Part shown: positions 1,912 to 24,600 of the stretch, in pieces | How positions within the stretch are numbered: the stretch's first letter is position 1 | Layout: every line of letters begins with the position of its first letter | Origin: a virus | IMG/VR virus record: IMGVR_UViG_3300000103_000002 | Span: 1 to 32,209 of that record | Strand: one strand, 5' to 3' | Length of the DNA stretch: 32,209 bases | Translations under genes and position numbers: made by a program | The notes under the pieces: generated by a model | Told to the model about the DNA's origin: nothing | Databases searched by the model: none | Seen by the model: the letters and a program-made list of their open reading frames with translations, nothing else

Positions 1912-2364
1912 CTAATTCTCTTGACATCCCTCTTTTGGTTCTGGCGGAGTGTATTTGCCGTTTTCTGCTGATTGAGGCATTGAATTAATGATAAAAGTTC
2001 GTGACAATCCATCGATGATTGAGTCCTCTTTTCCGTTTATATAATTCATGCAGAACTGTATATGCGGGACACTGTTTTTAATTTTTTCATTTGTAGCGAT
2101 ACGCATTATGTAGTCAGCCATAATTTCGTCTTTTATTTCTTTTGTGCGTCTTTCTCCGTATTGTTCTGGTATAGTTCCTGGGTAATTTTTCATAACTTCC
2201 TTAACTATTTCGCCGTCTGGATATGTACGGATAGTTCCAAAGGGTCGATACTTAAGATATTTCAAAAAATCTTTTGTTATCTGTATTAGTTCACTTTCAG
2301 ACAATCGCAGTTCTTTCGCTTTTTTTAATAGTTCCGATTCTGAGAGTTTGTATTTGTAGTCCAT
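1912..2364 (-). CDS. Hypothetical protein, lone minus-strand gene divergent from terL
   Basis: 150-aa ORF with an internal LSESEL duplication (KLSESELLKKAKELRLSESELIQI). No family recognised. Confidence 0.55.
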   Translation of the reverse strand: MDYKYKLSESELLKKAKELRLSESELIQITKDFLKYLKYRPFGTIRTYPDGEIVKEVMKNYPGTIPEQYGERRTKEIKDEIMADYIMRIATNEKIKNSVPHIQFCMNYINGKEDSIIDGLSRTFIINSMPQSAENGKYTPPEPKEGCQEN

Positions 2365-2376
2365 TTATTAACTATT

Positions 2377-2385
2377 TGTTATAAT
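2377..2385 (+). promoter_or_regulatory. Candidate extended -10 promoter (TGTTATAAT) upstream of terL
   Basis: TGTTATAAT lies 33 nt upstream of the terL ATG. The -35 is weak. The same TGTTATAWT-type element recurs before other operon starts. Confidence 0.35.
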
Positions 2386-2417
2386 TGAATAAAATTATAG
2401 CGTATTAAAGGATATTT

Positions 2418-3719: not shown

Positions 3720-3730
3720 GGGGTAGGGAT

Positions 3731-3961
3731 ATGGCATTACCAATAGGGGCGATAATGAAAGCATTACCGGTAATTGCGCCAGTTGGATCTGATATAGGAA
3801 GACTGGTAGGCGGAGGTATGCAAAAATTAGGAAACAGAATTACTGGAGACGGAACGAACAAACATAAGCGGAGATTTGGTAATTTTCTGAGCGGCTTAGG
3901 TGGCATAGTGGGAAAGATAGCGAGTGGTATCGGCAGCATATTCGCACCTAGAGAAGAGTAG
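3731..3961 (+). CDS. Small glycine-rich amphipathic protein
   Basis: 76 aa. GNFLSGLGGIVGKIASGIGSIF is a glycine-zipper or antimicrobial-peptide-like segment. RBS present; follows terL directly. Confidence 0.6.
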   Translation: MALPIGAIMKALPVIAPVGSDIGRLVGGGMQKLGNRITGDGTNKHKRRFGNFLSGLGGIVGKIASGIGSIFAPREE

Positions 3962-3972
3962 AGGTAAAAGCT

Positions 3973-4569
3973 ATGATTAAAACATTATTTTCCAATGGCC
4001 CTATGAGCATGGTTCCATTAAATTTAATAGCTCCGAGACTTAGGAGATTTTCAGCTAGCAATGCAGGTAATATGGGAGGAAATCCTGATTTGTCGAGAGC
4101 AAACATGAGTTCCATGGATACAGGAATTGGCAGACCGTCAGCAGTGTCAGAAATACTCCAAAGACCAATATCGCAGCCTGGACCTGGGGGTATTTTTAGA
4201 CAACCTTTCAATGCAGGCAATATGGGAGGAGATCTTGATTTTTTGTCGAGAGCAACCATAGGGCCTCTGACATCACTAACGGGACCTGGTGGCGTTAGAA
4301 GATTCGGACCAACTCCTTATCCTAATTTAATGCCAAGCATAAACAGAAGACCAATATCGCAGCCTGGACTTGGGGGTATAACGCCTCAATTTGATGGTAC
4401 TGGATCTACGAACCCTGGTTATATTAATCCATTGCAGCTTGGACCTGGTGGTATACCTCGATTTAGGTTTTTTTGTGGAACTGGGGCCGGTGGTATCAGG
4501 CCATCGCAGCCTGGATTTGGGGGTGCTTTGAGACCAACTAGGAACATATCTGGCATAAGAGGATTATAA
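3973..4569 (+). CDS. Gly/Pro-rich repeat protein (PGxGG repeats)
   Basis: 198 aa with six PGxGG(I/V) units (QPGPGGI, TGPGGV, QPGLGGI, LGPGGI, GAGGI, QPGFGGA) and a duplicated NAGNMGG...LSRA unit. The near-identical 32-nt repeats at 4162-4193 and 4348-4379 differ at one base. Confidence 0.6.
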   Translation: MIKTLFSNGPMSMVPLNLIAPRLRRFSASNAGNMGGNPDLSRANMSSMDTGIGRPSAVSEILQRPISQPGPGGIFRQPFNAGNMGGDLDFLSRATIGPLTSLTGPGGVRRFGPTPYPNLMPSINRRPISQPGLGGITPQFDGTGSTNPGYINPLQLGPGGIPRFRFFCGTGAGGIRPSQPGFGGALRPTRNISGIRGL

Positions 4570-4570
4570 A

Positions 4571-4711
4571 ATGCCAAAACGTTGGGGTTCTTCTACGCGA
4601 ACTGATATGATAACAGGCGGATTACAATTGGCTGGGCAAGGTATTTGGAATTGGCTTAGACCGCCCATCTGCAGCGCCAACAGCGCCACCCGTGCGACCT
4701 GCACAAACTGA
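4571..4711 (+). CDS. 46-codon ORF with a good RBS; probable true 5' part of the next gene (frame change needed)
   Basis: ATG at 4571 is preceded by AGAGGA (4558-4563). It encodes MPKRWGSSTRTDMITGGLQLAGQGIWNWL... and stops at 4709-4711, overlapping the +1 frame that carries the 4692 ORF. Confidence 0.4.
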   Translation: MPKRWGSSTRTDMITGGLQLAGQGIWNWLRPPICSANSATRATCTN

Positions 4712-5159
4712 CCTTGCCGGAGTAGCAACTGCAGTTGGCAGATGGCTTGGATCAGGAAGGAGAGGCGACTGGATACGAGGAGCAGGAGCTCAAGCAGGCG
4801 AAGCAGCGGAAATAGCAGGAGAACTTCCTGGCAGAGCGGCACAGGCGGCAGGTAGAGGAGCAGGTCACGCGGCGGTTGGAATAGCAAACTTATTAGGTGA
4901 CAGCGGAACTGAAAAAGTAGGTGAATTATTAGGCAAAGGAGCAACTGAGATAGCTGCAATAGCTGGAGGAGCAGGAGAAAGCAGAGCAGGCTGCCTGTTT
5001 AGCAATATAGGCAGAATCCCAGGGGTTAGTTTTTTAGGTAAAGCAATAAAAGGGATAGCAGAAACCGGAGCTAGAGGTGTAGGTAGTAAATTAGGTAGAA
5101 TTGCCAGCTTTATCGGTCATGGTATCAAAAGCATTTTTGGGAAAGTAAGAGGAGCATAA
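4692..5159 (+). CDS. Gly/Ala-rich protein with amphipathic C-terminus (start doubtful; likely fused to 4571 ORF)
   Basis: 155-aa ORF with no internal Met. Its only start is a GTG with no RBS, yet its frame is open from 4614. The C-terminus (FLGKAIKGIAETGARGVGSKLGRIASFIGHGIKSIFGKV) is amphipathic. Confidence 0.55.
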   Translation: MRPAQTDLAGVATAVGRWLGSGRRGDWIRGAGAQAGEAAEIAGELPGRAAQAAGRGAGHAAVGIANLLGDSGTEKVGELLGKGATEIAAIAGGAGESRAGCLFSNIGRIPGVSFLGKAIKGIAETGARGVGSKLGRIASFIGHGIKSIFGKVRGA

Positions 5160-5243: not shown

Positions 5244-5783
5244 ATGGACTTAGGAACTATTATGCAGCTTGGTAACTTTGCTATGGGGTTATTTGGATCT
5301 TTCAGCGCTAGGAATACCTATAATCGTCAAGCGGCGCATTATGAACGAGAAGCGGCGTTAAATAGTCAGATAGGAGCGTTTAACGCTGAAGTAGCGGAAC
5401 GTACTGGTTCAGAATCGGTAGCGGCGATCGCTCATCAAACTAAAAAGATATTAGGAGCTCAAAGAAACGAGTTTGCTCGCAGAGGTATATCTATGGAGGG
5501 ATCTCCGATGTTTGTTATGGGAGAGACTATTACCATGGGTTCTAAGCAAGCTCAAGAAGCGTATTTTAACGCTCAGGTAAGAAAAACAAACGCGTTGTAC
5601 GCGTCATATGGAGCGACTGCCACTGCTTCTGCTAATGCTGAAAGGGCGCACGGTGGAGCTATGCAAGAAAATTTCAATATATTTAAGCAGTTTAAGCAAG
5701 GAGCTCAAAACCTTAGATCATCGATGGCTATTCAGGAAAACCAGCAAAGCTTTCGTAGTTTAATGTTTGGAAATAGTGTGTAA
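5244..5783 (+). CDS. Putative internal virion/ejection protein (gp14-position)
   Basis: 179 aa with an N-terminal hydrophobic segment (LGNFAMGLFGSF). Its position is immediately upstream of two large internal-protein-like genes and the T7-type fibre. The function is positional inference. Confidence 0.5.
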   Translation: MDLGTIMQLGNFAMGLFGSFSARNTYNRQAAHYEREAALNSQIGAFNAEVAERTGSESVAAIAHQTKKILGAQRNEFARRGISMEGSPMFVMGETITMGSKQAQEAYFNAQVRKTNALYASYGATATASANAERAHGGAMQENFNIFKQFKQGAQNLRSSMAIQENQQSFRSLMFGNSV

Positions 5784-5788
5784 ATAAA

Positions 5789-7915
5789 ATGCCTAGATTA
5801 GAGCCGAGATTAGATAATTCAGATGACGTAAGTTCGCAAGCAGCTAGAGGAAGAGGCAACAGCGGGTTGCCAACGGCTAATGTATATATACCTAATTATC
5901 ATGGCGTTAATCAATTATTGACAAGAGCTGGCGGAGATGGAGCGATAGCGTTTGGAGACGCTCTTGCCGCTCATTCAATGCGAGATATGGAGGCTCATCA
6001 AGCTGTATATGACAATTTAGAATCAACGTCTGCGATGGTTCTTGTTAACGAGAAGATAAATCGAGATTCCAGAGAGTTTAAGGAATCGAACCCGTCAGGC
6101 AAAGGATATCAGCAATACATAACGGAACAATATAAGAAATACACTGACGAAGCTATGGCTAACGCTAGTAATCCTACTGTATCTCAGAATCTGCAAATGT
6201 TTACTATGAAAGGTATGGTTGATTGGGCAAACAAAAGTTTCAAAGAAGAAGCTACGTTAAGAACCTCATACGCGTTTCGTGAAACGGATAAAAATAACCA
6301 GATATTATTAAATAATATACATATTAATCCAGATAATTTTGGGAGTTTATTTGAGCAATACAAAGCGTCTGTTAATACAATGTCTGGAATATTACCTAAA
6401 GGCCAATTTGAAACATACCAAGCTGATGCGTATCACAATGCTATATATGCTTATGGTCTTGGTTTAATAGAAAAAGATCCTCATCAGGCGAAAGAACTAT
6501 TAAAAGGAGATGTCTTTGTTAATGGACTTCCAGCAGATAAATTTAGTAACTTATCTCGTCATGCTGATGTAGCAATTCGATCAGAGGAAAGTAATAGACG
6601 GCTAGTAGCCGCAATCGCTGATAGAAACGAAAAAGCGCATCAAGATGTTAATACTGCAAAATTAGATGGATTAATTGAAGCTGGAGCTGCTTCTCATAAA
6701 ACAATCGATGAGTTCGATATCAGCGATACCCAAAGAGAACGAGCATATAACAAGCTTGCTAAGTACGAAAGACAGCAGGAAGAAAAGCAGAAAGATCAAG
6801 TTGAGATATCTACTCGCGTTTCCGAGGGAACTCCTCTTACCGGAATAAGTGAGCAAGCTCAAGTGGAATATTACAGAAATGCTGTTAGACAGATGAGACA
6901 GAGTAATCCTGATAATCCACCTACAATAATGGATAAAGCTATGGTTGCTACAAATATGAAAGCAACGGCGCAGATAGACGATCTTGTAGCTGATATACAG
7001 CAGATAATGAGCAACGGCACGGCTTCTGAAGCTGTACAAGCGGCGTTTGCTTTGAATTATTTGAGAGATACTAATGTAATCACAATTGGTAAGATAGGTT
7101 CAGAGTATAAGTACTTTGCGGACGAAGTAGAGAGAAACGCTATATTCGAAGGATCAGAAGCAAAGAACGCGCAGGTGGTTGTTGACAATGCCAGGGGTTT
7201 ATATTTCTCTCCTGTTACAGAACAAACGATAAAAGATCATAAAGCAGCATATTCTCAATATACAGAAAACGGAAAACTCAAAGGAGTTATTAATGAGATA
7301 GTTGATGACTTCACAACAGAAGGATTCATTCGTAAGACAATACATCCATCGATGGAAAGAAGCATACGATCTGACGCCGAAAGGCTTTTGCAGGAAGCGT
7401 TTATGGCTGGAGCTAGAGGAGACGACGCTAAGCGATCAGTAATGAATTCTTTAAAAAGAACGTATACAAGCACAGATATAAACGGTTCTCCGCAATATAT
7501 GAAGTTCGCTCCTGAGGCTATGTATCCTCAATACAGAGATACGCATTTTATAAAAAACAATTATGCGGAAAGTGTTCAATCTCTTGTTGATGCTGCATCC
7601 AAGAATAGCAGCGTTTATACTGGAACTCCCGTTAGATTAAAGAACCCACTTATTAGACAATATGCCGATCCGAATCGGAAGTTCCAAACCGACTTGACTA
7701 CTGGAAATGTGCCTGTTATTGAGGCTGATATAGATGGAAAATGGGAAGCTAGAGAAGTTTATATAGAGCCTGCGCCACATCAAATAGGCACTTATAATGC
7801 ATATTTTCTATATGAAAATGGTAAGTTTATGACCAAAAGATACCTCAAAAAAGTGTATAAAAACGCTCAAGGACACGTAGTCACAAGCCCACAAAACGCA
7901 AGGATTGCATTCTAA
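5789..7915 (+). CDS. Putative internal virion protein (gp15-position)
   Basis: 708 aa, mostly helical. The TAATG overlap with the next gene indicates coupling. Its size and order mimic T7 gp15 (747 aa). No catalytic motif seen. Confidence 0.55.
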   Translation: MPRLEPRLDNSDDVSSQAARGRGNSGLPTANVYIPNYHGVNQLLTRAGGDGAIAFGDALAAHSMRDMEAHQAVYDNLESTSAMVLVNEKINRDSREFKESNPSGKGYQQYITEQYKKYTDEAMANASNPTVSQNLQMFTMKGMVDWANKSFKEEATLRTSYAFRETDKNNQILLNNIHINPDNFGSLFEQYKASVNTMSGILPKGQFETYQADAYHNAIYAYGLGLIEKDPHQAKELLKGDVFVNGLPADKFSNLSRHADVAIRSEESNRRLVAAIADRNEKAHQDVNTAKLDGLIEAGAASHKTIDEFDISDTQRERAYNKLAKYERQQEEKQKDQVEISTRVSEGTPLTGISEQAQVEYYRNAVRQMRQSNPDNPPTIMDKAMVATNMKATAQIDDLVADIQQIMSNGTASEAVQAAFALNYLRDTNVITIGKIGSEYKYFADEVERNAIFEGSEAKNAQVVVDNARGLYFSPVTEQTIKDHKAAYSQYTENGKLKGVINEIVDDFTTEGFIRKTIHPSMERSIRSDAERLLQEAFMAGARGDDAKRSVMNSLKRTYTSTDINGSPQYMKFAPEAMYPQYRDTHFIKNNYAESVQSLVDAASKNSSVYTGTPVRLKNPLIRQYADPNRKFQTDLTTGNVPVIEADIDGKWEAREVYIEPAPHQIGTYNAYFLYENGKFMTKRYLKKVYKNAQGHVVTSPQNARIAF

Positions 7916-10900
7916 TGCCTGTTGTTAAGGAACTTGATGAACAGCTAGATAACACTTCTGCAGAAACTGCTTCGGAAGTAGTTTCTCCTTTTAAACCTGC
8001 CGAAGCAGATGCACCACCAGTCCACTCGGGAGAGAATACTGTAAACCCTACGGGTTGGGATAAAGCCGAATCTTTCCTAAGGCAATACAGTCCGGTGACT
8101 TCTTTCTTCGCTGATCCTCAATATAAAGAATATTATTTTCAAGGTAACGATCCTGAACCTAATTTTAATTTAGCTGCCAGTCTTGATGATGCAGGTGTGG
8201 ATAAAGGTATTAGAGCCTCTTACCAATGGTGTCGTTCAAAGGCAGACGTTGACGAGCAAACAGAATATCTAAGACTAGAAGCTCATGACAGAGATATCGT
8301 TGCTAATTCAGGCATTATGGAAAGCTTCCTATATTCCGCTCCTGCAATGCTGGATCCTGTGAACATAGCCGCAACTGCAGGTGCAGCAGCAGCCGCCGTC
8401 GTCGCTGCTCCAGAAGCTGCCGTTGTTGCAACAGCTGCTGTCGTTGGCTCAGCAGGAGCTTATGTCTCCGGCAAAGCGAGGCAAGCGTCTCAAAACATGC
8501 TCTCAGACTCCCAGGTAAACGCCGAAACAGCTGCTGGGGCGATATTTGGGGCTGCTTTCTCTGCTTGTGGAAAAGCTATTGGTTCAGCTTGGAAGTCGAA
8601 ATATATAGAAGCTATCAAAGATCGACTGGCTACTAACTGGTCTGATATGTCCTTCTCCTTTAAGAAAAAAGTCCAATACACTCCGAAAGCAGACGGCACG
8701 ATAAAAGAGCATAAAATAGCTGATATGCCGAAATGGTTTCAGACGATATATAGTGCTACTCCTGTAGGTAAATGTGCTACGTCAGAGTTCGAAACTGCTA
8801 ATAAAGTAGGTCGTATGTTCTTCAGAACAGATTATATCACTGAGTATACTAAAGCTGGGTTAGATAGCTTCCCATCTATGGAGGCCATTATCGAAACCCG
8901 CAGGGGAAACCTATTGTTCGTAGAAAAGGATTATATAACGTCTGTTGGTAAATATCTTAACAGCGAGTACGCTAAAAGCACAGGAGTTAACTTCGGTGAT
9001 GCTGTGAGAGAGACTATGCTTTCCGGAACTCATCATGAGTCATCAGAAGTAACTCGAACAGCAAGCGACTTGAAAAAATACATCAACGGAATGTTTCAAG
9101 AAGCGAACGAGGCTAAGATCATCCAAATCGACAATCTCGGTCAGCCAATGCAAGCAGCCGAAGGCAATGTGCCGTACCTTACCGCAGCTGAAAGCCACCT
9201 GACAAAAGAAGAGCTTACTACTAGAGTAAGTCAAGGCATACTAGATCAACAAGACGTGTTCTATTTCCCTCGTGTATGGGACATATCGAAGGTATTGTCT
9301 AACCGAGAGACTCTACTGCAACTGCTCGAGATGAGCGCTATAAAGCAAGGCAAGCCGAACCCTAAGGAATTCGCTGAAGGCCAGTTTATGCATATCATTG
9401 GAGCGGCAGAAGGAGAAAGATGGTCTATACCAGATGTTAAAGTTAGCGCAACAAGCGGTGGAGCTCTAGATAAAGAGCGGACTGTTCTCGTGGACGATCG
9501 TTTATTAACTCAGTGGGTGGTGACCGATCCGCTAGAGATCACTAAGGCTGTGCATCATAAGCTCGTGCCTGCAATCGCTATGAAAAAAACGCTGAAAGCA
9601 AACGGATACGATAATTTCGCTCAAGTACTGAAAGAGTTGGATAGCGAGTACGTTGCCAAGCTGGCTGCCGCTCCAAATGATCAAGGCGTTGTGTTACACG
9701 AGCAATATAAAGACGCGGCGCGGTTAATAAAAGATATTCCGCTGTTAGTAGATGGAATGTACGGAAAAGACAACTTAGTTAGAAACCCGAGATCAGCGGC
9801 TTCGCTACATTCTCTTAGAAACTTCAACTACGCTAGAAACCTCGGGGGCATGTTATTATCTTCCCTAAACGACCCGCAATTGCTGGTTAATACATGGGGG
9901 CTGAAGCCGGTATTAAAAAGTTATCTTAAAGAATTCAGCCATGCTGTCGGCATAACCAAACCTGCCGCACCTAAAGTTATGAAAGAAGAATTGCAGAGAT
10001 TAGGAGTAGGCATTGAGTTAGCTGTTCTCGATATGGCTAACCGCATGGACGTCTCAAGTATGCATCCTATGAGATACCTACTTGACGGAAATAAGATATC
10101 AGACAAAGCTCTCGCTTATACGATTAAAGCAAGCGATTGGTCAGCTAGAAAACTCACTAAATGGTCTGGTATAGCCTGGTGGAACGATTTCAATAAGCGA
10201 GTTAACGGTAATCTGTATTGCGATAGATTACTCGAGGCGTGCATTAACGAAGAAAAATCGTTTTTATCTCAGATGAGAGTGCCAGCTGATATGGCTAAGC
10301 GTATCGCGAAGCAGTATCAGGAATTTGGGGAGCTATACGACGGCTTTAGAATACCCAACAGCCAGCTGTGGAGCGACGTAGAAGCTAAAGAAGTCTTCGG
10401 AGCGTCTGTTGTGACTAACTTAAATAATACTGTACTCATTCCTGGCGCAGGAGAAGTGCCGATGTGGTTTAAGAATACTACTGGAAAAATATTTATAAAT
10501 TACAGATCGTATGGATTCGCTATACTAAATAATCTTTCGGCTAAATGGGCGAACGGTCAAAGGGAGCATATGACTGCCGTCGCTCTTACAGGAACTGGAA
10601 TGACAGCGCTTGGACTATATTTAAAGTCGTTGTCTAGAGGAGATCCGTATATGCTTGACGATCCGGAGTTCTATAAGGAAGTGGCGCTTAGGTCTGATCT
10701 AGGAGGATGGGTTTTAGATACTGTAAAAACTACACACAATCTCTATTCTTCCACAGCGGAGCATGGACAAGCAGGTCTTTTTAGAGCGTTAAGCAGAGAA
10801 TCTCCTGCTTTGGGATTATTGGGAAGTATAGGAGATACCGTTAATTACCTGACAAGGGAGTCAGATAGACCTATGAACGAATACGAGCTACGAAACGTTG

Positions 10901-11031
10901 TTTATATCAGTCCTTTCGTTACGCTGCCTATTGTTAATGGTATAGTAAATAATTGGATTAGAGGTCATGTAGAAGAATCAGGCGGAAAACTTGCAAAAAC
11001 AAGAAAAGAGAGATATTGGGAGAATAAATAA
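7915..11031 (+). CDS. Putative large internal virion/DNA-ejection protein (gp16-position)
   Basis: 1038 aa with a hydrophobic Ala/Val-rich segment (NIAATAGAAAAAVVAAPEAAVVATAAVVGSAGAY). TAATG coupling to the fibre gene. I saw no lytic transglycosylase motif. Confidence 0.55.
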   Translation: MPVVKELDEQLDNTSAETASEVVSPFKPAEADAPPVHSGENTVNPTGWDKAESFLRQYSPVTSFFADPQYKEYYFQGNDPEPNFNLAASLDDAGVDKGIRASYQWCRSKADVDEQTEYLRLEAHDRDIVANSGIMESFLYSAPAMLDPVNIAATAGAAAAAVVAAPEAAVVATAAVVGSAGAYVSGKARQASQNMLSDSQVNAETAAGAIFGAAFSACGKAIGSAWKSKYIEAIKDRLATNWSDMSFSFKKKVQYTPKADGTIKEHKIADMPKWFQTIYSATPVGKCATSEFETANKVGRMFFRTDYITEYTKAGLDSFPSMEAIIETRRGNLLFVEKDYITSVGKYLNSEYAKSTGVNFGDAVRETMLSGTHHESSEVTRTASDLKKYINGMFQEANEAKIIQIDNLGQPMQAAEGNVPYLTAAESHLTKEELTTRVSQGILDQQDVFYFPRVWDISKVLSNRETLLQLLEMSAIKQGKPNPKEFAEGQFMHIIGAAEGERWSIPDVKVSATSGGALDKERTVLVDDRLLTQWVVTDPLEITKAVHHKLVPAIAMKKTLKANGYDNFAQVLKELDSEYVAKLAAAPNDQGVVLHEQYKDAARLIKDIPLLVDGMYGKDNLVRNPRSAASLHSLRNFNYARNLGGMLLSSLNDPQLLVNTWGLKPVLKSYLKEFSHAVGITKPAAPKVMKEELQRLGVGIELAVLDMANRMDVSSMHPMRYLLDGNKISDKALAYTIKASDWSARKLTKWSGIAWWNDFNKRVNGNLYCDRLLEACINEEKSFLSQMRVPADMAKRIAKQYQEFGELYDGFRIPNSQLWSDVEAKEVFGASVVTNLNNTVLIPGAGEVPMWFKNTTGKIFINYRSYGFAILNNLSAKWANGQREHMTAVALTGTGMTALGLYLKSLSRGDPYMLDDPEFYKEVALRSDLGGWVLDTVKTTHNLYSSTAEHGQAGLFRALSRESPALGLLGSIGDTVNYLTRESDRPMNEYELRNVVYISPFVTLPIVNGIVNNWIRGHVEESGGKLAKTRKERYWENK

Positions 11032-14000
11032 TGGCGATAGACTCTAGAGAAGGACAAGCGGTAGTAACCTACGTAGTATCTCAATTAAAAGAAAGCGATA
11101 CGTTCCCTATAACGTTTCAGTATTTGGAGAACGACGAATATCTTGGAGCTTATATCAGAAAAAATGACGGCAGCAGAGTAGATTTAGTGCTGGATACGGA
11201 CTACAGAATAAGCGGCTCCAGCGGTATAAATAATACTTGGGGAACATTAACTATATTAAGAGATCTCGGAGATTCTGCAAGCAATCCTCTGAGAAACATC
11301 TGTATATATAGACAAGTAGATAACGATCAAGGACGTACGTTCGATTCTCAGACATTATTTGCGGAAACCACGGAATCTGCGTTAGATAAACTAACTGTAT
11401 TATATCAAGATAATCAATTCAGGGAATATACAATAAACGCTCCGGACGACGATTTATTAGATCCGGAGGCGATGAGGCTTCCTCCAGCTATGGAAAGAGC
11501 AAACGGACTTTTAGCGTTTAATACTCTTGGTAATGTTGAAATAGTAAGGGATATCGCGGATTCCAATATGGCTTTAAGGCAATCTCCTGGAGAACTTCCT
11601 GATCCTTCGTTTGTTCTTACTCAATATAATAGATCAGGAAAAATACTCGGTTTTGATGAACAAGGCAGTGTAAAGTATTATGATGGAGACGTTTCAAGAC
11701 TTCAGTCGGACTGGAAAGAGACAGACGGTACTTCCGCGTCTTATATAAAAAACAAGCCTATACTGTCGAATGTTGCCACAACCGGCGATTATAATGATTT
11801 AAAAAACAAATTAACAGCAGGAGCGAATATAAATATAACGACCAACAATGTTATTTCTGCCATAGGCTCAGGAGGTATATACACAGCGGGAGAGAATATA
11901 GACATAACAGACAATGTTATTTCCAGCGATGTATTGGGAGCGATTGTTGATCATAGTACCGGCGGATGGATGCCGTCTACGATGCCTTCTGCGCATTGGC
12001 GTTCTGGAACCTACGGAAATGGCAGGTTCGTTGTTGTAGCAGCTAGTAACTCCAATAAAGCAGCTTACAGCTACGACGGTATTAATTGGACGCCGTCTGA
12101 GCTGCCTTCTACTGCGGATTGGTATTCGGTAACCTACGGTAATGGTAAGTTCGTCGCTGTAGCAACTGATAACTCAACCAAAGCGGCATATAGTACTGAC
12201 GGTATTAATTGGACGCCGTCTAAGTTGCCTTCTACTGCGAATTGGATTTCCGTAGCCTACGGTAATGGCAGGTTCGTCGCTGTAGCAACTGGTAACTCAA
12301 CCAAAGCGGCTTACAGTTACGACGGTATTAATTGGACGCCGTCTACGCTGCCTTCTACTGCGAATTGGTATTCGGTAACCTACGGTAACGGCAGGTTCGT
12401 CGCTGTAGTTATAGGCTCCAACAAGGCGGCGTATAGTACTGACGGTATTAATTGGACGCCGTCTACGATACCTACTGCGAATTGGATTTCCGTAGCCTAC
12501 GGTAATGGCAGGTTCGTCGCTGTAGCTGATAACTCACCCGTAGCAGCGGCGTATAGTACTGACGGCATTACCTGGACGGAGTCTACGATTTCTTCTAGGT
12601 ATTGGATGTCTGTAACCTACGGTAACGGCAGGTTCGTCGCCGTAGCCGGCACCTCCGATACAGCATATAGTACTGACGGTATTAATTGGACGGAGTCTAC
12701 GATGTCTTCTGGGTATTGGAATTTTGTAACCTACGGTAACGGCAGATTTGTCGCTGTATCTTATGACTCAGGCAAAACGGCGTATATGTCCTTTGGAAAG
12801 GTTTTAAGAGAAGCGATTGATTACACAGCGGGAGAGAATATAGAAATCAAAGATAACGAAATTTCCAGCAATGTGTTGGGAGCGATTGTCGATCCTAGTA
12901 CCGACGGATGGATGCCGGCGGAGATGCCTTCTTCTGCGAGTTGGACTTCGGTAACCTACGGTAATAATAGATTTGTCGCCGTAGCTTATAACTCCAACAA
13001 AGCAGCCTACAGCCACGATGGTACTAATTGGACGCCGTCTACGCTGCCTGCTGCGGTTTGGTTCTCTGTAACCTACGGTAATGGTAAGTTCGTCGCTGTA
13101 GCTGATAACTCAGATAAAGCAGCATATAGTACTGACGGCATTAATTGGACTCAGACTGAGATACCTACTGGGGCTTGGACTTCGGTAGCCTACGGAAACG
13201 GTAAATTCGTCGCCGTAGCAGGTAATAACTCCAATAAATCAGCTTACAGCTACGACGGTATTAATTGGACGCCGTCTACGCTGCCTTCTACTGCGAATTG
13301 GTATTCGGTAACCTACGGTAACGGCAGGTTCGTTGCCGTAGCTACGAACTCCATCACAGCGTATAGTACTAACGGCATTAATTGGACTGCGTCTGCGATG
13401 CTTCCTACTGCGGATTGGCGTTCTGTAACCTACGGTAACGGCAGATTTGTTGCTGTAGCCTATAACTCAACCGCGGCGGCGTATAGTATTGACGGCGTTA
13501 CCTGGACATCGTCTACGCTGCCTTCTGGGTATTGGCGTTCTGTAACCTACGGTGATAATAGATTCGTCGCCGTAGCAGCTAATAACTCCAATAAAACGGT
13601 ATATAGTACTGACGGCATTAATTGGACGTCGTCTGCTACGCTGCCTTTTTCTGCGAATTGGAATTCTGTAATCTACGGAAACGGCAGATTCGTTGCCGTA
13701 GCAACCAATAACTCAACTAAAGCGGCGTATATGTCCTTTGGAACGGTTTTAAGAGAAGCGATTAATTACACAGCGGGAGAGAATATAGAAATCAAAGATA
13801 ACGAAATTTCCAGCAATGTGTTGGGAGCGATCGTCGATCCTGGTACCGGCAGATGGAAGCTGACTACGATACCTTTTGCGAATTGGCATTCTGTAACCTA
13901 CGGTAACGGCAGGTTCGTCGCCGTAGCTGTCAGCTCAACCAAAGCGGCGTATAGTACTGACGGTATTAATTGGACTCAGACTACGATACCTGCTGCGAAT

Positions 14001-14603
14001 TGGCAGTCGGTAACCTACGGGAACGGTAAGTTCGTCGCTGTAGGTTATAGCTCAACCGCAGCGGCGGCGTATAGTACTGACGGTATTAATTGGGTTCAGA
14101 CTGAGATACCTACTGGGCCTTGGACTTCGGTAGCCTACGGAAACGGTAAGTTCGTCGTTGTAGCAAGTAGTAGCTCAACCGCAGCGGCGGCGTATAGTAC
14201 TGACGGCATTAATTGGACGGAGTCTACGATACCTTCTGCGAATTGGCGTTCTGTAACCTACGGTAACGGTAAATTTGTCGCTGTAGCTTATCACTCAACC
14301 GTAACAGCTTACAGCTACGACGGTATTAATTGGACGGAGTCTACGCTGCCTTCTGCGAATTGGATTTCGGTAACCTATGGTAACGGCAGGTTCGTCGCTA
14401 TAGCTGATAGCTCAATCACAGCGTATAGTACTAACGGCATTAATTGGACGGAGTCTGCTACGCTGCCTGCTGCAGTTTGGTATTCGGTAACCTACGGTGA
14501 TAATAGATTCGTCGCTGTAGCTTATAACTCAACCGCGGCGGCGTATATGCCTTTTTTACGTACTTTTAGAGATCTTGTTAACTACGTGCTTAGTATTAAG
14601 TAG
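11031..14603 (+). CDS. Tail fibre: T7 gp17-type N-terminal adaptor domain plus 20 Asp-box-like beta-propeller blades
   Basis: The N-terminus (FPITFQYL...LDTDYRISG...ICIYRQVDNDQGRTFDSQTLF..ALDKL) parallels the T7 gp17 N-terminus (FNIPFEYL...INTDYRF...LRRVTS..R..DF.DGS). It carries the common fibre motif SDWKETDGTSASYIKNKPILSNVATTGDYNDLKNK, then repeats of W-SVTYGNG(R/K)FVAVA...AAYSTDGINWT. Confidence 0.85.
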   Translation: MAIDSREGQAVVTYVVSQLKESDTFPITFQYLENDEYLGAYIRKNDGSRVDLVLDTDYRISGSSGINNTWGTLTILRDLGDSASNPLRNICIYRQVDNDQGRTFDSQTLFAETTESALDKLTVLYQDNQFREYTINAPDDDLLDPEAMRLPPAMERANGLLAFNTLGNVEIVRDIADSNMALRQSPGELPDPSFVLTQYNRSGKILGFDEQGSVKYYDGDVSRLQSDWKETDGTSASYIKNKPILSNVATTGDYNDLKNKLTAGANINITTNNVISAIGSGGIYTAGENIDITDNVISSDVLGAIVDHSTGGWMPSTMPSAHWRSGTYGNGRFVVVAASNSNKAAYSYDGINWTPSELPSTADWYSVTYGNGKFVAVATDNSTKAAYSTDGINWTPSKLPSTANWISVAYGNGRFVAVATGNSTKAAYSYDGINWTPSTLPSTANWYSVTYGNGRFVAVVIGSNKAAYSTDGINWTPSTIPTANWISVAYGNGRFVAVADNSPVAAAYSTDGITWTESTISSRYWMSVTYGNGRFVAVAGTSDTAYSTDGINWTESTMSSGYWNFVTYGNGRFVAVSYDSGKTAYMSFGKVLREAIDYTAGENIEIKDNEISSNVLGAIVDPSTDGWMPAEMPSSASWTSVTYGNNRFVAVAYNSNKAAYSHDGTNWTPSTLPAAVWFSVTYGNGKFVAVADNSDKAAYSTDGINWTQTEIPTGAWTSVAYGNGKFVAVAGNNSNKSAYSYDGINWTPSTLPSTANWYSVTYGNGRFVAVATNSITAYSTNGINWTASAMLPTADWRSVTYGNGRFVAVAYNSTAAAYSIDGVTWTSSTLPSGYWRSVTYGDNRFVAVAANNSNKTVYSTDGINWTSSATLPFSANWNSVIYGNGRFVAVATNNSTKAAYMSFGTVLREAINYTAGENIEIKDNEISSNVLGAIVDPGTGRWKLTTIPFANWHSVTYGNGRFVAVAVSSTKAAYSTDGINWTQTTIPAANWQSVTYGNGKFVAVGYSSTAAAAYSTDGINWVQTEIPTGPWTSVAYGNGKFVVVASSSSTAAAAYSTDGINWTESTIPSANWRSVTYGNGKFVAVAYHSTVTAYSYDGINWTESTLPSANWISVTYGNGRFVAIADSSITAYSTNGINWTESATLPAAVWYSVTYGDNRFVAVAYNSTAAAYMPFLRTFRDLVNYVLSIK
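11881..14560 (+). repeat. Three tandem coding modules (~942 and 945 bp apart) of 7, 7 and 6 blades of ~130 bp
   Basis: The module header acacagcgggagagaatata recurs at 11881, 12823 and 13768. The YGNG/YGDN blade core recurs 20 times. Perfect matches are long, for example ~83 nt shared around 12320-12400 and 13255-13335, and ~55 nt at 12232-12286 and 12473-12527. Confidence 0.9.
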
Positions 14604-14611
14604 CTATGTGT

Positions 14612-14639
14612 TTGAAATATAAATATAATTTTGTATAAT
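14612..14639 (+). promoter_or_regulatory. Candidate sigma70-type promoter TTGAAA-16-TATAAT (with upstream TG)
   Basis: TTGAAA at 14612-14617 and TGTATAAT at 14632-14639, in the 62-nt gap after the fibre gene and 27 nt before the next ATG. Confidence 0.45.
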
Positions 14640-14665: not shown

Positions 14666-14854
14666 ATGCCGAGAAAAATCGGGAATAGTAAGCTTACAAT
14701 TCATTCCTCTCCTCAAATGTTGATAAATGAAGTTAATAGATTGAAGCAATTACTAAGGGCGCGTCTTAGAAGCATCGCTCCGATAGCCGGAGTATCGAAG
14801 GATCCGTTTTTGATGATATTCAGAAGAAACGCTAATACACAAGAAAGAGAATAG
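14666..14854 (+). CDS. Hypothetical small basic protein
   Basis: 62 aa with an AAGGA RBS. Its stop directly abuts the GNAT start (TAGATG). Confidence 0.45.
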   Translation: MPRKIGNSKLTIHSSPQMLINEVNRLKQLLRARLRSIAPIAGVSKDPFLMIFRRNANTQERE

Positions 14855-15307
14855 ATGGAAGAAGTAAGGTTTATAGAGTATCTGCCACAGCACGCTTACG
14901 AGATGGATTGGAAAGACAAAGATGAGTTTTTGGGGATTGTAAAAGGTAATCCGCAGTTTTTTCATTTGATGTCTACGTTGGATGATACGTTAACTATGGT
15001 AAGAGGAGATAAGATACTTGCATTAATATCTGCATCGCCAACCGAAGCTTATAAAGCTGGTATAATATTTTTTATGTCTAATACGTATGTAGATGAGTTC
15101 GATAAAGAGATATTTACGGCAACTAAAGTTATGCTAGACAATATCTGTAAAAAATATAGCAAGAGAGTATCTTTGGAAGCGAAAGCTACCAACATAAAAT
15201 TAATAAAATTCTTAGATAAATTAGGATTTAAGAAAGAGGGCGTTATGAGGAAAAAAGGACATAACGGAGAAGATTACATTTTGTTTTCGATCGTAGAAGG
15301 GGACTAA
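14855..15307 (+). CDS. GNAT-family N-acetyltransferase
   Basis: C-terminal GNAT signature: RVSLEAKATNIKLIKFLDKLGFKKEGVMRKKGHNGEDYILFSI, of the RimJ/RimL type. Confidence 0.75.
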   Translation: MEEVRFIEYLPQHAYEMDWKDKDEFLGIVKGNPQFFHLMSTLDDTLTMVRGDKILALISASPTEAYKAGIIFFMSNTYVDEFDKEIFTATKVMLDNICKKYSKRVSLEAKATNIKLIKFLDKLGFKKEGVMRKKGHNGEDYILFSIVEGD

Positions 15308-15308
15308 A

Positions 15309-15878
15309 ATGTGTGGTTTTTTTGGAGAAGTAGGAAAAGTATTTAAACCTGTTGTTCGAATAGCTGCACCGATAGTAGGCGCTGGATTAGGAGGCCCTTT
15401 GGGAGCTGCTGCGGCGAGCGCGGCAGCTACCGCGGCTACCGGTGGCAATCGCGGTGATATATTTCGCAGCGGAGCATTGGGCGGCTTAGGAGCGGCGGCA
15501 GGCAGTGCTTTTGGCAGTCAGAATTATTTAGCTCGTTATTTGGGAGGTTCTGATGTGTTTCAAACGGCGACAACAGGAGTTGGGGCGTATTTAGGTAATA
15601 ACGCGGCGGCCAGCATAAACGCTAATCTGAGGGCTATGAGACAGGCTAATGCAGAGTATACCGCGCCAAGCGCTCCCAGCTTTGAAGTCCTGAAAGCCGA
15701 GGGGGCGGCAAAAGCTCGGGAAGCGTTTGAAAGAGAAGGCATAAGGCATATACTTGCCGACAGTCTTCATAGGAGAATCCGCAGATCGAGCGAGATAGAT
15801 ATTTATAATTACACTAAATTTGCCGATTGGAAGTCGAGAGTAAAAAGCAGATCTCGCAAAGGATACAGAAGTGAATAA
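15309..15878 (+). CDS. Gly/Ala-rich protein (fourth member of the glycine-rich set)
   Basis: 189 aa. The N-terminal two thirds are G/A-rich (APIVGAGLGGPLGAAAASAAATAATGG...GALGGLGAAAGSAFG) and the C-terminus is basic. It overlaps the portal start. Confidence 0.6.
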   Translation: MCGFFGEVGKVFKPVVRIAAPIVGAGLGGPLGAAAASAAATAATGGNRGDIFRSGALGGLGAAAGSAFGSQNYLARYLGGSDVFQTATTGVGAYLGNNAAASINANLRAMRQANAEYTAPSAPSFEVLKAEGAAKAREAFEREGIRHILADSLHRRIRRSSEIDIYNYTKFADWKSRVKSRSRKGYRSE

Positions 15879-17676
15879 ATCTCAAAAACAGTCTCAATCT
15901 CAAGAACAGCCTCAGCGTCAATCGATGAGCATAGTTGATATATTATTTCAGAACTTAGACGTTAGAGACATCATCAAGAAATGGAATCGAGTCAGAACGG
16001 CAAGGCAGCCCTGGGAACAGAAATGGCAGATGATTCAAGATATGGTTATGCCGAACTACAGGGATTTTCTCAGCAATGCGGGCAATGTTTCTCTTCATCC
16101 TCAAACTAACAAAATAAGGAATCATTCTTCGTCAGTATCCGGCAGGATCAATAAAGTAGTATCCCAGATGAATTCTCAGTTAACAGATCCGTCTATTAAA
16201 TGGCTGGATTTGAAATTTATTGATCCGTGTTACCTAGCCAACGGCATGCCTATATCCATAAGCGGGTTTGATTCCGCAAAGAGGTGGTTATATTCATTAA
16301 AGGAATCGTTATACAATTTATTTTCAGATCCTAGCAGTAATTTTTATCCGTCTACCTACAGTTTTCATTTTGATTGGTTCACGATAGGCACAGCGTGCAG
16401 AGAGATAGTATTAAGAAAAGATACGGGCAAAATACACTTTAACGCTGTATCAATGCAGAACATATATGTTGAGCTATCGGGACACGGAGATATCAGCACA
16501 ATTTACCGGAGGTTTCTGCTCAGTCCGAAGCAGGCATACGACTTATGGGGAGACCGCTTGCATCCTACTCAATTGCAATTAGTAGCGCAAAGCATTAACG
16601 ATTCAGCAAGGCATAATCTGCATGAATATGTAGAGGTATCCCAGCCTAATCCGTTAAAAAACCAGATACCATCTCCGGATTATATGACCTGCGTAATAGA
16701 TGTAATGAATAAGCATGTTGCAGATATCGGTCTTCACAAGCAATCTCCGTATATAGTATCGAGATTCGACGTAGCGCCAAACGAGATATACGGCAGATCG
16801 TACACGTGGTACGCGATGCCGACGATTATCACGTTAAGCAAATTAGATAAGAGAGCTATACAGATTGCGGATTACTCTGCTTCTCCTCCTATATTAGTGA
16901 AAGATACGGCGGCGCTCGCCATACAGTATTTAGCTCCGGATACCATGGTTCAGGGTCTGGACGCTAACGGCAGACCTACTATGATGCAAATGCCTATTAC
17001 AGGAAACTTCCCGCTTTTAATGGAGTTCTATAGGCAGAAGCTGGACGAATTAGACGAAGCGTTGGTAGCTAGAGATATATTTTCTCAAGAAAGTCCGAAC
17101 ATGACGGCAACAGAGGTAAACGAGAGGAAGATTCAAGCGTCAAATAGATTACGTCCTATACTCGTGAGATTAGAGCACGAGGACTTAAATAATATGGTTC
17201 ATCGTTCTCTATCTTTACTGTCTGAAATCGGCATGCTTCCGGCGTTTCCATACGCTCAAGTTGAGGAAGAACTGGGCGTGCAGGAGGGAATGCTACAGCA
17301 GCTGCTGCCGGATCCGTTAAGTCAATTAAGAATAGTGTTTTCAGGTCCTATGGCTAGAATGCAGAGAATGCAGGATGTGCAGAACAGCGAGTTACTGTTT
17401 CAGAAGACAATGCAGGCGGCGCAGGTAGATCCGTCAGTATTAGATAAAATTAATCTGGAAAACATTATATCTATGGACGCGGAGATATACGGAGTAGATC
17501 CGCAGGTGATTAATCCGCCGGAAGTTGTGCAGCAGATACGAGCGCAGCGCGCTGAGCAAGAGAGTCGTCAGGCGGAGGAGCAAGCTAAAACGGCAGATAG
17601 TCAGAGGCAGGCTATGTTGATAGATACTATGATAAAAGCCAGAAATGGCGGCATAGATATCGGAGTCGGCGCATGA
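15871..17676 (+). CDS. Portal (head-to-tail connector) protein, podovirus type
   Basis: 601 aa with a GTG start (AAGGA RBS). The N-terminal motif WNRVRTARQPWEQKWQMIQDMVMP is typical of T7-gp8-like connectors. It is followed by scaffold and capsid genes. Confidence 0.8.
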   Translation: MNKSQKQSQSQEQPQRQSMSIVDILFQNLDVRDIIKKWNRVRTARQPWEQKWQMIQDMVMPNYRDFLSNAGNVSLHPQTNKIRNHSSSVSGRINKVVSQMNSQLTDPSIKWLDLKFIDPCYLANGMPISISGFDSAKRWLYSLKESLYNLFSDPSSNFYPSTYSFHFDWFTIGTACREIVLRKDTGKIHFNAVSMQNIYVELSGHGDISTIYRRFLLSPKQAYDLWGDRLHPTQLQLVAQSINDSARHNLHEYVEVSQPNPLKNQIPSPDYMTCVIDVMNKHVADIGLHKQSPYIVSRFDVAPNEIYGRSYTWYAMPTIITLSKLDKRAIQIADYSASPPILVKDTAALAIQYLAPDTMVQGLDANGRPTMMQMPITGNFPLLMEFYRQKLDELDEALVARDIFSQESPNMTATEVNERKIQASNRLRPILVRLEHEDLNNMVHRSLSLLSEIGMLPAFPYAQVEEELGVQEGMLQQLLPDPLSQLRIVFSGPMARMQRMQDVQNSELLFQKTMQAAQVDPSVLDKINLENIISMDAEIYGVDPQVINPPEVVQQIRAQRAEQESRQAEEQAKTADSQRQAMLIDTMIKARNGGIDIGVGA

Positions 17677-21660: not shown

Positions 21661-24600
21661 ATGGCTCGTATGCGATATAGCCACAATACGTTCAATACCG
21701 GAATAATAAGCAAGAAGGTACAGGGCAACACCAGCTTCGAGGGATATAACAACGCTCTTGATGAATGCGTTAATTTTCAAGTACAGCATACAGGCGGGTT
21801 ATTTAAACGCGGTGGAAGTTATTTTATCGCGGAGACGAGGAACAGCAACGCTGCGAAACTAGTTTCTTTTGCATATTCCGCTGATCAATCATATATATGC
21901 GAGTTTGGAGAACTGCCTGTAGCGGAGCAGACACCCACTGATTTTGGATATATCAGGTTCTACACTAAATACGGGGCTATCAAGAGGTATAACTCAGACG
22001 ATATATTGGAACTTCGTACGCCGTTTACGCTGACTATTGTAAACAGTATGAAGCATTACCAACAAGGTAATACAATGTATTTCGTTACGTCGAAAGGTAC
22101 ATATTATCTTGAGAGAAATTCTGCTGCCGGCGTGGCAGGAGAAGAGACCTTCAGTTTTTTCCCGACTCCAATTGAATATACATTGCAGCCTCTTACTTTT
22201 ATAAACAACGATCCAATCGCTTTAAAGCCGAGCGCAGTCGGAACAGGCGGCGCTGCCATAACCATAACCGCTATAAATCCCGTCGATCCCGCTTCTAAGC
22301 CGGACGCTAAATACGCTCCGCTCTTTTTTAATTCGGATATCAACAATTATTTAGTACTTACTTATATTGGTAACACGCCAGATGATTTTATTCACTATTA
22401 TCTAAAGATAACTAGTGTTACAGACGATACCGGCGGATTTAAACAATTGGCATGTACCATAGATGCAAAATGGAGTCCGATAAACGATCAAGGAGCCAGT
22501 GTGCTCCCAAATATTGATCCCGTTACTAACTGGAGAATATCCGCGTTTTCTGCAAACAGGGGATTCCCTTCCGCTGTCGCGATATATGAAGGCAGGCAGT
22601 TTCTAGCTAATAACAAACCTTCTTATCCGTTAGGCGTCTGGGGATCGTCTACTTTCTTCGATGATTTTTTCAATTTTTTAGTTGGAAGTAATGCTGGAGA
22701 CGCAGTACAGGTAAAGGCAAGTACTGATTCTGCCGATGAAATATTATGGATGACGGCACAATCTAAATTATTCATTGGAACAAGAGGTGGGATATATATA
22801 GCTGGATCCGCTACCTATAACGATGAAGCCATTACTCCTGAAAATTTTAGAATGCGATTGTTTGAGTCTACAGGAGCGTCTAACCTGCAGCCTCTTACGG
22901 TTATGGACGCCGTTTTCTTTGTCGATACTGCCGGTAAAAACGTTCACGAAATAGTTCTTGCCGAAACAGGAGCGTTTCAAGCTCACGACCTATCTCTATT
23001 GGCTAACGACCTGACTCAATCGGGAATTATAGATCATACATGGCAGCAGACTCCAGTAAAAACATATTGGTGTGCTACTAACGAAGGCCATTTGTGCGCT
23101 CTTACTTACTTGAAGAATAACAATATTATCGCATGGACTAAGCATATAATCGCAGGAAAAAGCGCCAGAATATTAAGCCTTGCCGCTATACATGAAGATC
23201 GTAACGATATCGTTTGGATGGTTGTGCAGAGAGATATCAACGGTACTATTAAAAGATTTATAGAGTATATTCATCCGATGTACGATCCTTTGGGGCAGGA
23301 AGAATTTAAGCAGTTTTACGTAGACAGCGGTATTATTAAAGAGCAGAAGCATACTATACAAAACATAACAAAATCTGAAAACACTCGTATAATATGCGAT
23401 ATGACCCCCATAAGAAAAACATCTGGATATAAACACGAATATCTGCTCTGCTTCCATATAAATTTACCTGGTGGAGCAGACAGTTTATTAGGAAGAGTCG
23501 ATATCTTCTCAGCCAGGAATATTACTAATGACGGCGCTGATATACATCACGATACACGTTTTATTAACGCGGATATCACTTCTAAAAAAATAGATCCACT
23601 TGATTATGACGGATACGTGTTCGATGTAAATAATAATATCGGTATGTATTATATGGTCTCTAATATAACTTCCTTTATAGATTCGCAAACTCATTTTCGT
23701 AGAGAAACTTTCATAGGATGCGATAATTCTGAATTAACAAACAATGACACAATATTGATACAAAACAGCGGAATTCAATTAGCAGGCGGAGGATATGTGG
23801 ATTACACATATGATCGGCAGATCTTCAGGGTTGAAAAAACAGCGGGCGGGCTTTATTTAAAAAACCTAGATAGTAGCCACGTAGCAACTCTTCCAGGAAC
23901 TTTAAATCCAAGAGCGGAACTATTTAAAAGAGTTAATCAAGTCACCGCCTGCAATCTTGGCACAAACACCCTTATCGAATTAAAAAAAGCTATACCCGAC
24001 AACCTCTTATCAAAAATAATCGGCAACTTAAATTCCTTGGCTTATAACGGTAATAACATTGTTGCCGTCAGCAGCGCGGGAGTCGCATATATAGGCTCTG
24101 ACAACGGCACAAATTGGATCCAATCTACAACAACAGGCATGGGTAACCTCACCGCTATAGCGTACGGCAACGGGTATTTCGTCGCCGTAAATAATAATCC
24201 AACAGGAAGAGCTTGGCGCAGCAATGATAACGGTCAAACTTGGACCCAATCTGCAACAGCTAGCTTGGGCATACTCACCGCTATAGCGTACGGCGGCGGA
24301 TATTTTGTCGCCGTTGACAGTAGAGGAGTTGCTACATATAGCAATAATAACGGTCAAAATTGGATCCAATCTACAACAACAGGCATGGGTACTCTCACCG
24401 GAATTGCTTTCGGTGTATCATATTTTATGGCGGTCAGCAGTGAAGGCCGCGTGTGGATGAGCAATAATAACGGTCAGACTTGGACTGTTTCCACAACAAC
24501 AGGCATGGGTAACCTCACCGCTATAGCGTACGGCGGAAGCTTTTTTGTTGCCGTCAACAGCATAGGAGAAGCATGGCGCTGCCCTTACAGCTCTGATAGT

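Follow-up and report, generated by a model that had tools for sequence, protein, structure and literature searches.

Receptor-binding proteins decide which bacteria a phage infects, and in several phages they carry beta-propellers, as described for Gp45 of Staphylococcus phage phi11, P2 of PRD1, gp131C of phiKZ and the endosialidases of K1F and phi92 (PMC4901313, PMC13250141). The phage receptor binders that have been studied have one propeller per chain each. Here a tail fibre gene is described from the IMG/VR virus record IMGVR_UViG_3300000103_000002, analysed over its full length of 32,209 nucleotides (the window), in which three propellers are predicted to follow one another on a single chain behind an N-terminal tail-anchoring domain. 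The reading favoured here, at a probability of roughly 0.6, is that of a podovirus tail fibre whose three tandem propellers act as multivalent lectin-like binders and whose repeats exchange sequence by gene conversion.

The C-terminal domain of phiKZ gp131 (4GBF) resembles this fibre in being a seven-bladed propeller at the distal end of a fibre, proposed to bind the host surface (PMC13250141, PMC4901313). It differs in having one propeller per chain and in belonging to a myovirus baseplate fibre; no similarity to it was found by tblastn in the phage collection, and it was absent from the best 50 structural neighbours. Gp45 of phi11 is a homotrimer in which each chain has its own propeller, with the three placed around the axis and a proposed N-acetylglucosamine (GlcNAc) pocket (PMC4901313). 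Its propellers have five irregular blades and form one tier on a siphovirus baseplate, whereas the present fibre is built from a regular 40-aa repeat and would form three tiers. The K1F and phi92 endosialidases are similar in being podovirus tail proteins with an N-terminal anchor and a trimeric six-bladed propeller part (PMC4901313, PMC13564897), but these are enzymes that have canonical Asp-boxes and whose active site is asymmetric, whereas the fibre has a shorter motif and interchangeable blades. Several closed propellers in tandem are found in DDB1, in the YWTD arrays of LRP4 and LRP2 and in Aip1, which were also the best matches to the whole model; these are eukaryotic proteins of unrelated function at 8–12 % identity, and the resemblance is architectural only. 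The lectins tachylectin-2, Aleuria aurantia lectin and PVL are regular propellers with approximately one sugar site per blade or interface, and bind with avidity. They were taken as the working model for the fibre, with no sequence match or specific structural match obtained to them.

It was found that the motif YG[ND][GN][RK]F occurs 20 times in the fibre protein at a spacing of 38–42 aa, interrupted by two gaps of 75 aa at the header segments, so that the 20 repeats of about 40 aa are arranged as 7+7+6 in modules of 314, 315 and 278 aa. Tandem Repeats Finder reported periods of 117 and 123 nt over positions 11967–14547. The YTAGENI headers are located at aa 284, 598 and 913 (nt 11880, 12822 and 13767), one base before the module starts given in the first-pass annotation (11881, 12823 and 13768), and the 20 motif copies in three header-led groups agree with its count of three modules with 7, 7 and 6 blades. 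Every module has the same order of header, blades, a last blade that is cut short and a trailing segment equivalent to a short helix.

The propeller fold was supported by structure prediction. The full-length AlphaFold2 model contained three all-beta blocks (aa 311–589, 625–900 and 940–1175) with four strands per repeat, in which the confidence means over 10-residue blocks were 83–98, mostly above 90, with low-confidence linkers between them. The confident stretch of propeller 1 (approximately aa 311–589) includes the end of header 1, and the block means of propeller 2 were about 87–98 over approximately aa 630–900. Structure searches with the models returned 1,431–1,493 propeller matches in PDB at E ≤ 0.001, and the best PDB neighbours of the whole model were all multi-propeller, namely the LRP4 and LRP2 arrays, DDB1 with three propellers and Aip1 with two seven-bladed ones. 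When the six-repeat module 3 was modelled alone, the predicted template modelling score (pTM) was 0.82 and the predicted local distance difference test (pLDDT) of the core was mostly about 90–98. Its best template modelling (TM) scores were to six-bladed NHL propellers (Brat, TMq 0.68 and TMt 0.70, with 60 non-propeller residues included in the query for superposition), and those to the seven-bladed Ycf48, Vgb lyase and G-beta were lower (0.53–0.61); identity of this module to every structural neighbour was about 10 %. The three separate propellers of 7, 7 and 6 blades that had been proposed from the letters of the sequence are supported by these models.

In each module the final repeat ends with its third strand (..AAYM, or ..TAYM in propeller 1), and the DG-W-x-x-x-x-P segment of the header is predicted to be a strand, which makes a ‘velcro’ closure of each ring by a strand of the preceding header likely. 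In header 1 the second part (HSTGGWMPSTMPSAH) resembles the outer (D) strand of a blade and presumably serves as the closing strand; the equivalent header segments form a strand after GxW in the AlphaFold2 models. A short helix was predicted after propellers 2 and 3, and the equivalent SFGKVLREAID segment in the connector after propeller 1 was modelled as coil.

The N-terminal domain links this array to a phage tail. Residues 23–129 matched the N-termini of PHROG tail protein, tail fiber and tail spike families at profile positions of about 20–115, and the four aligned relatives of the anchor matched the same families. The families considered were phrog_1640, phrog_6518 and phrog_36601, with E-values of 2.5e-10 for phrog_1640, 1.8e-8 for phrog_6518 and 4.6e-5 for a third family match. 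By tblastn, the anchor matched the N-termini of annotated tail fibres of the Vibrio phages VP2, VP5, phiVC8 and J2 and of Burkholderia phage BcepC6B, all at 30–34 % identity. As in T7, the gene is directly downstream of gp14/15/16-like genes, and its start overlaps the stop codon of the upstream internal virion protein gene (7915–11031). This homology of the anchor, together with the position after the internal virion protein genes, indicates that the gene product is a tail fibre, as the first-pass annotation had concluded. Its more specific description of the N-terminus as a gp17-type adaptor was not borne out, the matches being to other PHROG N-terminal families; no Pfam family, Phage_T7_tail included, was found for the anchor or its four relatives at E ≤ 10, and phmmer of the anchor against PDB sequences likewise gave nothing at E ≤ 10. 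Phage_T7_tail did not match the whole protein at E ≤ 1 either. The ‘gp17-type’ label would hold by analogy only.

The anchor is 36–52 % identical to those of P0001 (52 %) and P0121–P0123, with the same synteny, and P0121–P0123 have unrelated C-termini. Loci L002 and L003 have the same anchor (36–45 % identity) followed by short, unrelated C-terminal parts. Because the anchor is kept while the C-termini differ among relatives, the protein appears to be a modular receptor-binding protein with a conserved anchor and a swappable distal part. Distant relatives of the anchor were fetched from 39 loci, of which 38 came from an alignment-based scan of viral contigs and one from a metagenome scan (a single-sequence anchor scan of viral contigs gave no match), and none of these 39 carried propeller repeats. 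The only anchor relative fetched that carries them is on L001, which was fetched separately; among the fetched loci, only L001 and the window combine the propeller family with this podovirus fibre anchor.

In the proposed mechanism, the N-terminal domain of about 220 aa would fix the fibre to the tail, and the three propellers would follow on the same chain, each closed by a strand from the header before it. Fibres of podoviruses that have such an anchor are trimeric, and because of this one fibre would be expected to display nine propellers in three tiers. Across the 20 aligned blades, entropy was high only at position 2, in the B–C loop and in the D–A linker; the leading Trp, the core Tyr, Gly, Phe, Val and Ala positions and two tight turns (GNG and S-x-DG-x-x-W) were kept. 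Standard propeller topology puts these variable positions on one face of the propeller, the usual ligand-binding face, and by this analogy they would share a binding face. The blades are nearly interchangeable, with blade-specific conserved residues absent among the 20, which disfavours an asymmetric active site and favours many equivalent weak sites. As non-enzymatic, lectin-like modules, the propellers would grip a repetitive ligand on the host surface, most probably a polysaccharide, by means of many weak sites. Gene conversion, and probably unequal recombination, would keep the repeats alike and change the number of blades and modules between relatives. Such exchange among repeats would supply variation in the loops and in blade number, and may through these bear on host range.

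To determine how far the similarity of the repeats exceeds that imposed by the protein, exact direct repeats in the gene were compared with a null in which the protein was kept and synonymous codons were redrawn from the gene’s own usage, 300 times. The longest exact repeats in the gene were 83, 67 and 55 nt, and 16 pairs were at least 30 nt long. In the null, the longest repeat had a mean of 21.7 nt and a maximum of 35 nt, and the mean number of pairs of at least 30 nt was 0.02. The exact tracts therefore exceed the expectation from protein conservation. The 83-nt tract, starting at 12318 and 13251, matches the perfect stretches of up to about 83 nt noticed at the outset, and the 67-nt tract is shared by the headers of connector 1 (12820–12886) and connector 2 (13765–13831). 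DNA identity between blades was 57–88 % with a mean of 74 %. Between modules in register it was 77–82 %, with a synonymous divergence (dS) of 0.38–0.50 and a ratio of non-synonymous to synonymous divergence (dN/dS) of about 0.4. Inter-module identity per 60 nt was patchy, ranging from 63 to 100 %, and the best DNA partner of a blade frequently lay within the same module or in a different register (1 with 3, 4 with 15, 5 with 17, 8 with 10 and 11 with 4). The patchy identity, combined with exact tracts far beyond the synonymous null, points to old repeats exchanging short tracts by gene conversion.

The first-pass annotation had described near-identical DNA repeats, with perfect stretches shared by blades in the same register of different modules, and had explained them by very recent duplication or ongoing gene conversion. 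Gene conversion or recent exchange is supported by the exact tracts relative to the null; very recent duplication is not consistent with the dS values, and only short patches of the modules are identical. The best DNA partners of the blades are often not in the same register. Recent duplication of a whole module was rejected on the basis of the dS of 0.38–0.50 and the mosaic of blade partners. A diversity-generating retroelement was also considered as a source of variation and rejected, there being no reverse transcriptase among the open reading frames (ORFs) scanned.

The closest relative, P0001 (L001, positions 2101–5115), has 2+7+7 blades with the same grammar of headers and helices, and a comparison of blade number among relatives, as had been suggested, thus shows a difference. 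Its gene contains exact tracts of 109, 61 and 56 nt, and third-codon-position identity was 0.69 and 0.73 within each of the two genes compared to 0.64 between them. The differing blade count, the exact tracts and the third-position identities all support recombination among repeats.

The two-blade module of P0001 (aa 262–360) has a normal header before it and a normal trailing helix after it. A ring cannot be closed by two blades on their own, and designed two-blade Pizza proteins build a six-bladed propeller from three chains. The module could be a shared six-bladed propeller formed by three chains, a deletion or an assembly collapse. As a speculative and rather unlikely extension, the fibre may be pictured as a trimeric ‘beads-on-a-string’ adhesin with nine lectin-like propellers and up to 60 blade-level sites per fibre, in which the number of blades and modules would serve as a fast, recombination-driven dial for avidity and reach, with the three-chain shared ring of P0001 as its extreme.

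The repeat was found to belong to a very large family with the consensus W-x-SVCYGNGKFVAVA..SN..AYSTDGI-x-WT, the members of which are 35–50 % identical, have the same seven-blade modules, often several per protein, and are seen as partial matches to DUF6242, Beta-prop_HVO_0234 and EPTP. More than 4,700 proteins matched among 8,000 scored candidates, and the module profile found 50,391 cluster representatives at E ≤ 0.001, 16,257 of them at E ≤ 1e-30. Most members are proteins of 1,500–7,000 aa with other N-termini on contigs of 100–280 kb, including gut contigs that resemble large phages. Arrangements of 7+7+7, 7+6+7 and 14 blades are common. The longest proteins of the family have 7,363 aa, and the highest number of profile-matched stretches, 23, is on a protein of 7,024 aa; P0131, P0175 and P0128 are giant propeller arrays. 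Three tandem propellers are ordinary for this family and unusual only in relation to studied phage receptor binders. The description of the architecture as unusual therefore stands against experimentally studied receptor-binding proteins but not within a family of about 50,000 representatives.

Members of the family were also found in Bacteroidota surface proteins, one giant virus and many uncultured tailed phages, and some of those in uncultured phages carry an intramolecular-chaperone domain typical of fibres. In cultured jumbo phages the repeat is located in tail modules. In Xoo-sp13 it is inside and beside the ‘host specificity protein’, near tail sheath genes, and in Limnohabitans phage DC31 it is at the end of a gene block upstream of the lysis gene. 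The module profile gave nothing better than 1.3e-3 against PDB sequences, indicating no solved structure in the family by sequence. A literature search on the repeat motif found no paper, with the DUF names occurring only in passing mentions.

Relationships to named propeller families were also assessed. The fibre reached a summed score of 58 bits for EPTP (PF03736, LGI/epitempin) against a cut-off of 21 bits, with no single stretch significant; membership was rejected, the score being a sum over 20 weak repeat matches. Designed Pizza proteins (E 1e-12) and PknD (0.004) were found by phmmer, while the family profile found no NHL structure and there was no Pfam NHL match. Ycf48 was found at a profile E-value of 0.0035, and by Foldseek at an E-value of about 5e-11 with TM-scores of 0.53–0.57 and 11–12 % identity. 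The proposed check by AlphaFold and by Foldseek against sialidase and Ycf48-like propellers gave a propeller fold, with a generic propeller resemblance to Ycf48.

A role in host recognition has to be weighed against one in general adhesion, in which the propellers would hold gut mucus, plant fibre or other glycan-rich material and another protein, such as the C-terminus of tail tube protein B, would recognize the host. An adhesion role has been proposed for immunoglobulin (Ig)-like capsid decorations. Relatives of the phage come from deer and rumen gut assemblies, and large gut phages fuse the same propellers to a head decoration domain, as in L004 and L005 (8001–13049; Hadza gut contigs of about 278 kb), where the fusion is to a C-terminal Hoc-like head decoration/DUF6273 domain. 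Of the 1305 aa of tail tube protein B, only approximately the first 566 are assigned. General adhesion is nevertheless considered unlikely here, as the propellers sit on an anchor-bearing fibre at the position where relatives carry swapped C-termini, the signature of a host-range determinant, and the window yielded no second gene for a fibre or spike.

Some observations weigh against the receptor-binding interpretation. The Hoc-like fusions in other phages mean that the family is not exclusively a tail receptor binder, and the actual receptor binding could lie with the approximately 740 unassigned C-terminal residues of tail tube protein B. The evidence for ring closure and for the face of the variable loops consists of secondary structure, pTM and textbook propeller topology; in the AlphaFold2 model, pLDDT is below 50 for the anchor and the connectors.

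It is quite unlikely that the fibre is a depolymerase whose propellers, as sialidase-like enzymes or as glycoside hydrolases or lyases of another kind, cut capsule or other surface polysaccharide in the way that the six-bladed propeller of the K1F endosialidase does. Phage endosialidases do have trimeric propellers (PMC4901313), the S-x-DG-x-x-W turn resembles an Asp-box, the structural neighbours include Vgb lyase, and BFVD neighbours are named ‘BNR repeat domain protein’ and ‘xyloglucan hydrolase’. However, the Asp-box consensus, which occupies the turn between strands 3 and 4, is S-x-D-x-G-x-T-W, and propellers of this type are characteristically irregular (PMC2716378). The blade turn of the fibre, S-(T/Y)-D-G-I-N-W, has the G directly after the D and one residue fewer before the W, and the blades are regular, at 57–88 % DNA identity. 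No BNR, sialidase or glycoside hydrolase model matched the whole protein at E ≤ 1. The initial label of an Asp-box-like variant was dropped on these grounds, and membership in the sialidase/Asp-box family was rejected. In addition, an active site needs blade-specific residues, whereas mainly core positions and the two turns are conserved here; gene conversion keeps the blades alike; and identity is low, at about 10 %, to all structural neighbours.

Although the region is highly repetitive, the window resembles a metagenomic assembly with an 85-nt terminal overlap and the odd two-blade module of P0001 could itself be a collapse, it is very unlikely that the 7+7+6 copy number is an assembly artefact hiding a gene with fewer or more repeats, as the longest exact repeat of 83 nt and a blade identity of at most 88 % allow ordinary reads to place the blades uniquely, the frame is open for 3.57 kb with header, cut last blade and trailing helix in order in each module, all three modules were modelled as folded at high confidence (block means mostly above 90), and unrelated assemblies show 7+7+7, 7+6+7 and 7+7+6. 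An artefact was rejected as the main explanation given the unique blades and consistent module grammar, and the region is less prone to collapse in short-read assemblies than had been feared.

Should the propellers prove to be multivalent glycan binders, the family would represent a major group of phage adhesins that has so far escaped annotation in viromes of the gut and the environment, and it would be a compact system in which to examine how repeat number tunes adsorption. The locus indicates that in a small podovirus a standard fibre anchor can bear three propellers in tandem, all from a very large family. For annotation, this repeat behind a fibre anchor may be used to mark the receptor-binding part, and the fibre gene is a convenient entry into a very large, uncharacterized propeller family.

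The features of the fibre gene are listed in Table 1. The motifs of the short shaft segment recur, repeated, in the fibre-like proteins P0124–P0127.

Table 1. Coordinates of the tail fibre gene and its parts in the window
Feature	Position (nt)	Strand	Details
Tail fibre gene	11031..14603	+	1190 aa plus stop; single ORF spanning the whole region
N-terminal tail-anchoring domain	11031..11699	+	aa 1–223; conserved core aa 23–129; PHROG and tblastn matches
Short shaft segment	11700..11879	+	aa 224–283; common phage-fibre motifs SDWKETDGTSASYIKNKP and VATTGDYNDLKNK, first AGANINITTNNVIS hairpin motif
Header 1	11880..11996	+	aa 284–322; YTAGENIDITDNVISSDVLGAIVD then HSTGGWMPSTMPSAH
Propeller 1	11997..12788	+	blades 1–7, aa 323–586
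Exact DNA tract, 55 nt	12232..12286	+	identical to 12472–12526; both copies within module 1
Longest exact DNA tract, 83 nt	12318..12400	+	identical to 13251–13333; blade boundaries 3/4 and 10/11
Connector 1	12789..12941	+	aa 587–637; SFGKVLREAID segment, then header 2, plus likely closing strand
Propeller 2	12942..13730	+	blades 8–14, aa 638–900
Connector 2	13731..13883	+	aa 901–951; short predicted helix, header 3, likely closing strand
Propeller 3	13884..14549	+	blades 15–20, aa 952–1173; six blades, distal fibre end
C-terminal short helix (PFLRTFRDLVNYVLSIK)	14550..14600	+	same element as after propellers 1 and 2

Bases 1–85 of the window recur exactly at 32125–32209, and on this basis the window is a complete phage genome of about 32.1 kb that is either closed into a circle or terminally redundant. 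The genome encodes a large terminase, a major head protein, tail tube proteins A and B, an endolysin and an Erf recombinase, with T7-like internal virion proteins at 5244–11031 and the portal at 15871–17676. The order of internal virion proteins, fibre and portal is shared with L002 and L003, and the portal is approximately 26 % identical to those of HTVC010P-type pelagiphage and other podoviruses. Megablast of the fibre gene against 50,697 phage records gave no match; the low portal identity and the lack of any record matching the gene at the DNA level indicate a distant lineage. Relatives of the fibre anchor were found at three loci in a genome scan, on contigs binned with deer and rumen gut genomes, and the fibre gene belongs to a small gut or rumen phage. 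A relative of the anchor at 38 % identity was found on L049 (JAZNEM010000022.1, 32,161 bp), a contig nearly equal in size to this genome, in a metagenome-assembled genome (MAG) bin of Eubacteriales; this is probably a related phage genome mis-binned among bacterial contigs. The G+C content of the genome is 40.9 %, compared to 47.8 % in the repeat region (11997–14603), a difference that may be due to the amino acids encoded in the repeat or to the module having been acquired from another genome.

For tail tube protein B (21661–25578, + strand), the tail protein family matches cover only aa 1–566. The C-terminal residues had no Pfam match and were covered by no PHROG match; they could form a second host-interaction domain or an enzymatic domain on the nozzle. 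No convincing terminator was found after the fibre gene. A near-consensus sigma-70-type promoter (TTGAAA, 16-nt spacer, TATAAT; 11/12) is located at 14612–14639 on the + strand, just past the fibre stop codon and before the small genes at 14666–15878. The Erf recombinase gene (29819–30514) adjoins an IS110-family (DEDD) transposase gene at 30850–31830 on the + strand, identified by Pfam matches to DEDD_Tnp_IS110 (2.2e-16) and Transposase_20 (7e-13), which could represent an insertion sequence or the phage’s own integration enzyme. Rfam gave no match on the whole window. The stretch of about 335 nt upstream of the transposase (30515–30849) has no long + strand ORF and might encode a guide RNA.

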